Assembly: GCA_009992175.1 (NCBI GenBank)
Contig: JAACWA010000015.1
Location: 1 to 56,392 of the forward strand
Direction: 5' to 3'
DNA length: 56,392 nucleotides
From: an archaeon
Lineage (GTDB): Archaea > Nanobdellota > Nanobdellia > Pacearchaeales > GW2011-AR1
The translations under genes and the position numbers were made by a program. Below are positions 40,605 to 44,277 of the stretch, piece after piece. A model generated the notes under the pieces. It was not told where the DNA came from, did no database searches, and saw nothing but the letters and a program-made list of their open reading frames with translations. The stretch's first letter is position 1. Every line of letters starts with the position of its first letter.

Positions 40605-40792
40605 AAAAACAATCAGAAAGTGATTATGAAAAGATGATAAACCTCCCTTTCAATAGTGATGGTTATAATCCAAGTAATTATGAGAGAAAAATTGAAAATA
40701 AAAAATTGAGTATTGAAGAAGTTCAAAAAGATTTTATTAAAATGCCTAACATTGAGGAAATTCAAAGTAAATTTATAAAATTAAAAAAATGA
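40601..40792 (+). CDS. hypothetical small protein embedded in the RNAP operon
   Basis: 63-aa ORF with ATGA overlaps at both ends (with the previous ORF and with rpoA). Confidence 0.5.
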   Translation: MKKQSESDYEKMINLPFNSDGYNPSNYERKIENKKLSIEEVQKDFIKMPNIEEIQSKFIKLKK

Positions 40793-43700
40793 AAAAAACA
40801 GTAAGCAAAAAAATTGGAGAAATAAAGTTTTCATTACTTAGCCCTGAGCAAATAAAAAAGATTTCAGTAGCTAAAATTGTAACTCCTGAACTTTATGACA
40901 TCGATGGTTATCCTGTTGATGGAGGTTTGATGGATTTGCGTCTTGGAGCAATTGATCCTGGAGTGAGATGTCGAACTTGCGGAGGAAAAATTAAGGAATG
41001 TTTGGGACATCCTGGAAGTATTGACCTCGCAAAACCAATTATGCATTTAAAATATATTTCTGTAATTGAACTTGGACTTAGATCATTTTGTCAAGAGTGT
41101 GGAAAACTTATGCTTGATGAAAAAGATTTGAAAAAATATTCTCCAAGTGAAAGAGCAAAAAAAGCAAAAGACAATAAAAAGTGTCCTCACTGTCAAGCAA
41201 CTCAGGAAAAAGTAAAACTCGAAAAACCAACAAGCTTTTACAAAGGAAAAACAAGACTTTTCCCAACTGAAATAAGAGAAAGTTTAGTTAAAATTCCAGA
41301 TGAAGAACTTAAAAAAATTGGTGTTAACCCAAGAACATGTAGAATAGAATGGGCAATTTTAAATTCTTTAATTGTTCCGCCTGTTACAGTTAGACCAAGT
41401 ATTATTTTAGAGTCTGGAGAAAGAAGTGAAGATGATTTAACTCATAAATTGTCAGATATCATAAGGGCTAATCAAAGACTTTGGGAAAACCTTAATGCTG
41501 GAGCTCCAGAAGTTATAATTGAAGACCTTTGGGATTTACTTCAATATCATATTACAACTTTCTTTGACAATACTGTTGCTAGAGTTCCTCCAGCAAGACA
41601 TAGAAGTGGTCAACCTTTGAAAACAATTACTGAAAGGATAAAAGGTAAAGAAGGAAGAATTAGAAAAAACATCGCCGGAAAAAGAGTAAACTATTCTGGT
41701 AGAACTGTGATTAGTCCTGACCCTAATATTAGAATAAATGAAGTTGGAATTCCTTTTGAAATTGCAAGAGTTGTTACAGTTTCAGAAACAGTTAATGATT
41801 TGAATAAAGAAAAACTTTCTAAACTTATTAAAAATGGTGAAGTTTGGCCAGGAGCAAACTATATTATTAGGCCTGATGGAAGAAAGAAAAAAATAACTGC
41901 TGAACTTCAAGAAGAGATTATTGAAGAACTTAAACCTGGATATAAAGTTGAAAGACATTTACAGGATGGAGATGTTGTTTTGTTTAACCGTCATCCTTCA
42001 CTTCATAGAGCAAGTTTAATGGCACACTTTGTGAGAGTTCTTCCAGGAAGAACTTTTAGAGTCCACCCCGCTGCAGCAAATCCTTATAATGCCGACTTTG
42101 ACGGTGATGAGATGAATATTCACTCTCCACAAAATGAAGAAGCGAGAGCTGAATCAAAAATATTACTTGATGTTAAACAAAATTTAATTTCACCAAAGAA
42201 TAATACTAATTTAATTGGATGTATTGTTGACGCAGTTACAGGAAATTACCTTCTTGGTCAAAAAGAATTTACACGTGAAGAAGCAAATCAACTTTTATAT
42301 AAATCGGGAATTGAATTAGATATTTCGACAAAGATGATTAGTGGAAAAGATGTTTTCTCTTCAGTAATTCCTGATGTAGATTTTTCAAACTCCTCAATTG
42401 AAATTAAAAAAGGAAAAGTCCTTAAGGGAGATATTGATAAAAGTACTTTTGGTGACGAAGGTGGAGAACTTGTAAAAATAATTGATCAAAAGTATGGAAG
42501 AAATGAAGCATTTGATTCTATTAGAAGAGCATTTAACCTTGGTAAAAATTATTTGTCGGAAAGAGGAATCACTGCATCTGTTGAAGACTTTGATTTAGAT
42601 GAAGACACAATTGCAGAGAGTGAAAAAATAATTAAATCAACTGAGAAAAAAGCTGATGAAATTATTCAATCTTATCGAGATGAAACAATCGAACTTATTC
42701 CGGGAAAATCAGCAGAAGAATCTCGTGAAATACATTTACTTAAAGTTTTAAATGAAGTTAGAACAAAAATTGGTGCAATGGTAAAAGAAAGATTCCCCAA
42801 CACTAATCCAGTTAGTTATATGATAAAATCTGGTGGTGGAGGAAATATTCTTAACATTACTCAGATGGCTTCATGTGTTGGTCAACAGGCCTTTGCTGGA
42901 GGAAGAATTGATATTGGTTACACTGAAAGAACACTTTCATTTTTCAAAAAAGGAGATTTGAGTCCAAAAGCAAGAGGATTTATTCGAAGTGCATTTATTA
43001 AAGGACTTAGACCTGATGAATTTTTCTTCCAAGCAATTACTGGTCGTGATTCACTGATGGATACTGCACTTAGAACTCCAAAATCAGGTTATTTATATAG
43101 ACGTCTTGCTAATGCACTTCAAGATATGAGGGTTGAATATGATGGAACAATTAGAGATTCAGGAAACAATATAATCCAATTCAAATATGGTCTTGATGGA
43201 TATGATGTTTCAAAAATTCACTTAAAAGAAAAAATCTCGTCGGGAGAAGCAGTTGGACTCGTGACTGCACAGTCATTTGGTGAAGCTTCAACACAGATGG
43301 TTTTGAATACTTTCCATATGGCAGGTGTAGCTGAAATGCAGGTTACAACTGGACTTCCAAGAATTATTGAAATTTTTGACGCAAGAAAGAAACCTTCTTC
43401 ACCAAAAATGGAAATTCACTTAGAAAGCGAGTTTAATAATGAAGAAAGTGCTAAAGAGTTTGCAGAACAAATTAAAGAAGTAAACCTAAAGGGAATTTCT
43501 TCAGAAATTAATTTAGATTTTAGTTCAAAAACAATTTCAATTAATTTAGATAAAAATGAACTTAAGAAAACACATACAACTTTAAACAAAGTTGTTGAAA
43601 AGCTTAATGAACTTGGGTTTAACGTCGAGAACAAAGGAAATTCCATTGTTTTAAATGCATCAGAATATGGATTTAAAGAAATTTATCAACTTAAAGAAAA

Positions 43701-44277
43701 ATTGAAAAAATCAATTATTTCGGGTGTTAAAGGTGTTGAACAAATATTGATTGTGAAAAGAGGAAGAGACTTTATTGTTATGACTCTTGGAACAAACTTG
43801 AAAGAAATGATAAAATTAAAAGAAGTTGATAAAAAGAAAATAATCTCTAATGACTTGCATGAAGTTGCAGTTGTATTTGGAATTGAAGCTGCAAGACAAT
43901 TAATTATTAATGAAATTAAAGAAGTTCTTGATTCACAGGGACTTGATATTAATATTAAACACTTGGAGCTTGTTGCTGATGCTATGACTAATAATGGTGA
44001 AGTTAAAGGAGTTACAAGGATGGGAATTATTGCTCAGAAAGCATCTATTTTAGCAAGAGCAACTTTTGAAACTCCAGTTAGACAGTTTGTAAATGCAATT
44101 GTTAAAGGTTCAACAGATAAATTAGAAAGTGTAATTGAGAACATTATTTTAAACCAACCTGTTCCAGTTGGGACAGGATTACCTGGATTGGTTGTAAATG
44201 TTATTGGTCCCTTAACTAAAGAAGAAAAACTTAAGAAAACTGCCGACTCAAAAATTGTTGAAAAAACAAATAAATAA
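40789..44277 (+). CDS. rpoA: RNA polymerase largest subunit, A' and A'' regions in one ORF
   Basis: 1162 aa, continuous. A' landmarks are CRTCGG/CLGHPG zinc, RHPSLH and [10 protein letters not shown] (aa 434-443). A'' landmarks are [28 protein letters not shown] (aa ~819-846) and [12 protein letters not shown] near the C-terminus. Confidence 0.93.
   Translation: [1162 protein letters not shown]

Follow-up and report, generated by a model that had tools for sequence, protein, structure and literature searches.

In this study, a 56,392-nucleotide (nt) contig of an archaeon of the Pacearchaeales (NCBI GenBank assembly GCA_009992175.1, contig JAACWA010000015.1, forward strand; hereafter the window) was analyzed for its gene of the largest RNA polymerase (RNAP) subunit, rpoA (rpo1). 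This gene (40789..44277, + strand) encodes A' and A'' as one fused polypeptide of 1162 amino acids (aa), in a single open reading frame (ORF) with an ATG start. The same architecture is conserved throughout a Pacearchaeota-type clade, to which the window gene belongs and whose Woesearchaeota-type sister group has the subunit split into two genes, and the segment missing at the junction can be delimited by comparison with these split relatives. We consider it highly probable that the gene encodes a functional single-chain catalytic subunit, and that it arose by one secondary fusion, through an in-frame deletion in which a module equivalent to the foot of eukaryotic Rpb1 was lost. Fused pacearchaeal RpoA is already known from publications of 2017 and 2021, and the window gene is another member of this group with nothing substantively different.

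Architecture of the fused subunit

A Pfam scan placed all five Rpb1 domains (PF04997, PF00623, PF04983, PF05000 and PF04998) in canonical order within the one ORF, with scores far above the gathering thresholds, and Rpb1 domain 5 (aa 739-1087) crosses the junction between the A' and A'' parts. In a PDB sequence search, aa 7-805 corresponded to residues 4-855 (of 880) of Sulfolobus Rpo1N, and aa 812-1136 to residues 60-390 (of 395) of Sulfolobus Rpo1C. The preliminary description of this DNA had reported a single 1162-aa ORF with A'-type followed by A''-type landmarks, and the ORF listing, the translation, Pfam and PDB all agree with it, including the positions of the landmarks.

The A' (Rpo1N)-equivalent part (aa 1-804, 40789..43200, + strand) contains the clamp zinc motifs (C61/C64/C71/H74 and C101/C104/C132/C135 in the translation), the catalytic metal-A motif of the NADFDGD type (aa 434-443, 42088..42117) and the bridge helix (about aa 744-780, 43018..43128, + strand), and closes with the conserved IQFKYGLDG. 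It is followed by a fusion linker (aa 805-818, 43201..43242, + strand), which stands in place of the A' tail, the stop and start codons and the A'' head, that is, at the position of the Rpb1 foot. The A'' (Rpo1C)-equivalent part (aa 819-1162, 43243..44274, + strand) begins with the trigger-loop region at aa 819 and carries a 12-residue motif near its C-terminal end (aa 1122-1133). An alignment of 47 homologues (mean column identity of 82%) shows no variation in the residues of the catalytic and zinc motifs, the bridge helix and the trigger loop. The invariant bridge helix of these Pacearchaeota-type homologues includes a proline, P764, located two residues past a conserved arginine (aa 762-770, RTPKSGYLY, about 43072..43098). 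Compared with the aligned yeast sequence, the trigger-loop region reads GEAS for GEPA and MVLNTF for MTLNTF.

Anatomy of the junction

The junction lies within aa 800-823, of which aa 801-818 correspond to 43189..43242. Neither a stop codon nor a long homopolymer suggestive of a frameshift artefact is present in the DNA between 43100 and 43340. The earlier statement that the junction is short and in frame stands. To compare junctions, we counted the residues between the conserved YGxDG and GEAxG anchors by anchored local alignments in 80 species-representative genome loci. The linker comprises 14 aa in the window protein and 14-16 aa, always in frame, in 42/42 Pacearchaeota-type loci, with the consensus xDVSKLHLxxKIxP. 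This linker length as a feature of the clade was derived in the present analysis and not taken from the published work. In the Woesearchaeota-type loci, the same anchors are separated by an A' tail of 20-28 aa (IDVSKSEGGKINVKRII...stop) and then an A'' head of about 45-55 aa ending in ...KIxP. Each of these 35 loci has its split at the homologous point, and the A' stop either overlaps the A'' ATG or lies 1-12 nt away from it. The two ends of the linker match the split sisters, in that it starts like their tail (IDVSK) and finishes like the end of their head (KIxP). Because of this resemblance, the linker looks like a junction between the start of the former tail and the end of the former head, about 55-65 residues having dropped out together with the stop and start.

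The loss is also evident against other reference proteins. Compared with the Sulfolobus subunits, the window protein is short of ~25 residues at the end of the Rpo1N part and of ~57-59 at the beginning of the Rpo1C part, and the alignment to reference pairs that the preliminary description had proposed thus defines what is absent. In the alignment with yeast Rpb1, the upstream side of the junction aligns to residues 830-881 and the sequence from aa 819 onward to residues 1053-1121; the window protein jumps from about residue 881 to about 1053 and has no counterpart of residues about 882-1052, the position of the foot. A foot-domain allele of yeast Rpb1 maps to residues 954/955, inside the skipped span, and the eukaryotic foot supports association of Rpb6 and Rpb4/7 (PMC5389574). 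Beyond the junction, only two changes set the Pacearchaeota-type clade apart from the Woesearchaeota-type clade, a deletion of ~18 aa near aa 118 and a C-terminal insertion of 8 aa. Since there are so few other length differences, the compactness of the protein, which had also been remarked on at first, is real and mostly due to the junction deletion.

Distribution and phylogeny of the fused form

More than 120 protein clusters (90% identity; from NCBI, JGI, ENA and Logan) share the single-ORF architecture and are 74-100% identical to the window protein. All of them contain the five domains, and their lengths are 1160-1169 aa except for two shorter ones (1116 and 1146 aa, 96-97% coverage). The nearest database proteins, 74-91% identical over the full length, are named as subunit A' of a Pacearchaeota or Nanoarchaeota archaeon. 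Among genome loci, those with at least 56% identity to the query are all fused, whereas the Woesearchaeota-type loci (about 51-55%) are all split, at query residues about 809/815. The search of sister genomes suggested at the outset recovered the same fusion, with no stop or restart at the junction, in every one of the 42 Pacearchaeota-type loci. In all related loci, the gene is the sole copy beside rpoB, as determined by tblastn.

A neighbor-joining (NJ) tree was built from the concatenated or fused sequences, with the junction columns trimmed beforehand and 100 bootstraps. Bootstrap support was 100/100 for each of three groupings, namely the fused clade (38 taxa), its split sister clade (28 taxa) and both combined; the tree is distance-based, and the NCBI labels of the metagenome-assembled genomes (MAGs) in it are inconsistent. 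The window protein is nested with the split lineages and does not group with the unsplit A-type proteins.

The fused form in this lineage has been described before. Da Cunha et al. (2017, PLoS Genet; PMC5484517) mention "a secondary fusion in Pacearchaeaota", together with an alignment of the split region (their S29 Fig), A-type (unsplit) RpoA in Thaumarchaeota and Korarchaeota, and fused Bathyarchaea sequences. Nottebaum and Weinzierl (2021, Front Mol Biosci; PMC8204694) also note that A' and A'' are fused in pacearchaeal sequences (such as MAG61561.1 and NCO11196.1), and that such fused sequences show the N. equitans-type substitutions of the bridge helix and the trigger loop co-occurring in one organism. 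The window protein agrees with these published sequences in its lineage, its continuous A'/A'' polypeptide and its bridge-helix proline. The size of the junction deletion (about 60 aa, leaving a 14-aa linker) and the universality of the fusion in the clade are not spelled out in the excerpted text of these two papers.

These data narrow what the preliminary description had made of the gene. Its premise that the subunit is split in characterised archaea was too broad, given the unsplit genes of Thaumarchaeota, Korarchaeota and Bathyarchaeota (PMC5484517; PMC4084955, for the single rpoA of Thaumarchaeota). Its expectation of rarity does not hold either: every Pacearchaeota-type locus examined is fused, and the form was described in 2017 and again in 2021. 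By its own terms, prevalence of the fused form in this lineage and an earlier description of it would speak against it, and this is what 42/42 loci and the two papers (PMC5484517, PMC8204694) amount to. As for the phylogenetic information that the gene was thought to hold, the fusion does mark one well-supported clade, and it is informative in that limited sense.

Relation to split and unsplit subunits

The split Rpo1N/Rpo1C pairs (Saccharolobus/Sulfolobus, 2WAQ/2PMZ chains A and C; Thermococcus, 4QIW; and the Woesearchaeota type) share catalytic elements, domain order and operon context with the window protein, which differs from them in being encoded by one gene instead of two and in being about 80-130 aa shorter in total. 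Its identity to the split Woesearchaeota-type sisters is 51-55%.

The unsplit A-type RpoA of Thaumarchaeota, Korarchaeota and Bathyarchaeota, as well as eukaryotic Rpb1, Rpa1 and Rpc1, likewise hold the bridge helix and the trigger loop in one polypeptide. However, these proteins keep the intervening region, which amounts to 87 aa between the anchors in the unsplit Bathyarchaeota locus L063 and about 170 aa (the foot) in yeast Rpb1, compared to 14 aa in the window protein, and they match a junction query as two separate stretches. Protein P0130 also keeps a long segment at the junction position, unlike the window protein. Moreover, the sequence of the window protein is closer to the split Woesearchaeota-type locus L048 (54% identity) than to L063 and P0130 (44-45%). 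Thus, it has the single ORF of the ancestrally unsplit A-type class, but neither the foot-equivalent segment nor the phylogenetic affinity of that class.

Origin of the fused gene

The following origin is proposed. The ancestral state in the lineage would have been split A' and A'' genes, and the single-gene state would be derived from it by one secondary fusion in the common ancestor of the clade. An in-frame deletion of roughly 55-65 codons across the A'/A'' boundary would have removed the A' stop codon, the spacer of 1-12 nt and the A'' start codon, together with the greater part of the A' C-terminal tail on one side and of the A'' N-terminal head on the other. Since the A' stop and the A'' ATG are so close in the split sisters, one such deletion would suffice. 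The 14-aa linker would be what is left, with its xDVSK derived from the beginning of the former tail and its KIxP from the end of the former head. The lost piece lies where eukaryotic Rpb1 has its foot, a peripheral surface module. Neither the bridge helix nor the trigger loop nor the active site is affected, and because these are intact the enzyme is expected to work like any archaeal RNAP. Activity is thus predicted from sequence conservation, and both the deletion mechanism and the dispensability of the module are inferred.

Several observations weigh against this account. The bridge helix bears the N. equitans-type proline, which reduces activity once introduced into the M. jannaschii RNAP (PMC8204694). 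The contig itself is represented by assembled sequence. The polarity of the fusion was deduced by parsimony from an NJ tree whose lineages evolve fast, and the region of the split site is itself deleted, so that no stop/start relic is visible. Finally, an AlphaFold2 model of the full protein cannot be used to assess the structural role of the lost module in the archaeal RNAP: it reached a mean predicted local distance difference test (pLDDT) of 52 and a predicted template modeling score (pTM) of 0.31, with junction blocks at about 55 or lower, and is too poor to interpret, its input alignment of 47 sequences being shallow (at least 74% identity). The failure of the model probably reflects that the subunit needs its partner subunits to fold.

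The alternative that survives best, although it is unlikely, is that the unsplit state is ancestral, as in Thaumarchaeota, Korarchaeota, Bathyarchaeota and eukaryotes, and that the foot was shortened here while the relatives were split separately. Unsplit rpoA genes do occur in several archaeal phyla, and also in the Bathyarchaeota locus L063; no relic of a former stop/start is visible, as the region of the split site is deleted, and DPANN phylogeny is notoriously unstable. However, the sister group (100/100) is split at the canonical site, three other DPANN-labelled loci (L055, L059 and L064) are also split, and so is the subunit of N. equitans (PMC8204694). An ancestral unsplit gene would then need several independent splits at one position, and the published analysis has the same polarity as ours (PMC5484517). 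A secondary fusion remains the preferred reading on these grounds.

It is very improbable that the working subunit comes from a canonical split pair located elsewhere, and that the fused gene is an additional copy that has degenerated or specialised (a pseudogene or a paralogue). The window shows just 56 kb of the genome, and the unusual proline of the bridge helix could be taken as a mark of such a copy. Yet the gene occupies the canonical position in the RNAP-ribosomal operon, its catalytic and zinc motifs are those found invariant in the 47-homologue alignment, the window contains no other A'- or A''-like sequence, and the gene beside rpoB is the only copy in all related loci. Least probable of all, to the point of being negligible, is an assembly or consensus artefact by which a lost stop codon or a collapsed region made a truly split pair appear as one ORF: the window is of low G+C (about 30%) and metagenome-type, and related MAG loci do have defects elsewhere (L007, L021 and L039, described below), but the same architecture and linker length recur in >120 independent clusters and in all Pacearchaeota-type loci, the linker sequence is itself conserved, and about 60 codons are gone, which is more than a stop codon.

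The defects of these three loci are quality problems of public MAGs. An apparent 2088-aa rpoB-rpoA super-fusion in L021 is an artefact of a masked N-run (L021:4257-4358). The rpoA of L039 is disrupted by an Illumina adapter-like insert (ACACGACGC...CTTCCGATCT) at about 3535-3560, and that of L007 by an in-frame TAA (L007:7450-7452, about aa 491), both of them away from the junction.

Other fused or unusual largest subunits

A junction-centred search of 1.84 billion cluster representatives was also carried out. Most of the strong hits align in two stretches, corresponding to unsplit proteins with a foot, but a few proteins from outside the Pacearchaeota-type clade cross the junction in a single stretch. 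Taken together with the loci L054 and L058, they make up at least three further groups of fused RpoA with short linkers outside this clade, all of them single ORFs of 1128-1168 aa with linkers of 7-24 aa. The first is L054 ('Altiarchaeota' MAG126; L054:4791-8252), which has a linker of 21 aa and stands alone in the tree, with no close split relative sampled. The second consists of L058 (LFW-156_1; L058:2985-6368) and P0148, with linkers of 7-10 aa, which group together (100/100) beside the split, Micrarchaeota-labelled L064. The third is P0191 (RLG14493.1, labelled 'Nanohaloarchaeota'), which has a linker of about 24 aa and lies beside the split L055 and L059. These proteins share the single ORF and the reduced junction with the window protein but are only 42-46% identical to it, and their linkers are unrelated. 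Because the linkers are unrelated and the tree positions differ, the three groups look like separate events. In our judgement, which relies on thin sampling and a distance tree, it is about as likely as not that joining A' and A'' again while losing the foot equivalent is a recurrent route in small-genome archaea. No published statement of recurrent A'/A'' re-fusion was found in a limited literature search. If the route is indeed recurrent, the split site would lie within a dispensable surface module and would have been repeatedly erased by deletion, and each fusion would be a clean rare-genomic-change marker of its own clade.

Two unusually short eukaryote-like largest subunits from short ENA/Logan contigs were also noted, P0138 (1125 aa) and P0209 (1246 aa). 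Both cross the junction in one aligned stretch and thus have almost no foot region. Judged by reading their sequences, they have Pol III-type motifs, and they may come from highly reduced eukaryotic genomes.

In addition, three Woesearchaeota-type A'' ORFs are 850-900 aa long (L050:2895-5444, L057:8558-11164 and L071:7707-10412). Extra domains of the subunit were considered for them and rejected, since in L050 an intein splicing domain and a LAGLIDADG endonuclease domain are inserted in Rpb1 domain 5. The ORFs of L057 and L071, which have the same size and layout, presumably contain an intein likewise.

Genomic context

The position of rpoA in the window is that of the canonical archaeal cluster rpoH-rpoB-rpoA-nusA-S12-S7-EF2, with two deviations: two small ORFs precede rpoA, and L30e is missing after it. 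The first gene of the RNAP operon is rpoH (Rpo5, 68 aa; 36759..36965, + strand), identified from its ORF and translation; in most related loci, tblastn also places it before rpoB. The next gene is an unsplit rpoB (Rpo2, about 1087-1091 aa; 36955..40230, + strand) with Pfam Rpb2 domains 1-7. The true start of rpoB is probably the ATG at 36967 (MVAEKN...), right after the rpoH stop, and not the TTG at 36955, which overlaps the end of rpoH.

Two overlapping, lysine/glutamate-rich ORFs lie between rpoB and rpoA, one of 123 aa (40233..40604, + strand) and one of 63 aa (40601..40792, + strand), both taken from the ORF listing and predicted by eye to be helical. A Pfam search with the 123-aa ORF gave nothing, and tblastn of both ORFs against the 80 related loci gave zero matches. 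In several sister loci checked (such as L001 and L003), rpoA starts about 5-20 nt past the end of rpoB. From sequence comparison, the two ORFs look like a strain-specific insertion inside the RNAP operon that is not part of the conserved operon. The idea that they represent a relocated foot was rejected, as they have no homologue across these loci. A search of the 56-kb window found no detached copy of the deleted junction segment and no second A'- or A''-like gene.

Downstream of rpoA, a gap of 113 nt (44278..44390) leads to an archaeal nusA-like KH-domain gene (44391..44807, + strand), and no L30e gene is located in it; in many archaea, an L30e gene lies between rpoA'' and nusA. The nusA-like gene is followed by S12 (44876..45298) and S7 (45243..45923), all three being identified by Pfam, and by EF-2 (47376..49571), whose identity was read from the ORF translation and not from Pfam. 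An Rfam scan of the window detected three transfer RNAs (tRNAs) only and nothing near the rpoA junction: tRNA-Lys(UUU) (36516..36592, + strand), located just before the RNAP operon with a thioredoxin gene on one side and rpoH on the other, tRNA-Gly (10502..10572) and tRNA-Val (11260..11332).

Implications

As a discovery, the gene is of small value, since fused pacearchaeal RpoA has already been published and occurs in hundreds of public genomes, its entries being usually annotated simply as subunit A'. For annotators and phylogeneticists this is a warning, because A' entries of about 1160 aa already include A''. The fusion is also a clean rare-genomic-change marker that separates Pacearchaeota-type from Woesearchaeota-type genomes, whose NCBI labels are often inconsistent. 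With regard to the enzyme itself, the about 60 residues around the archaeal split site, which form the foot-equivalent module, appear to be dispensable, and this would bear on models of RNAP assembly.

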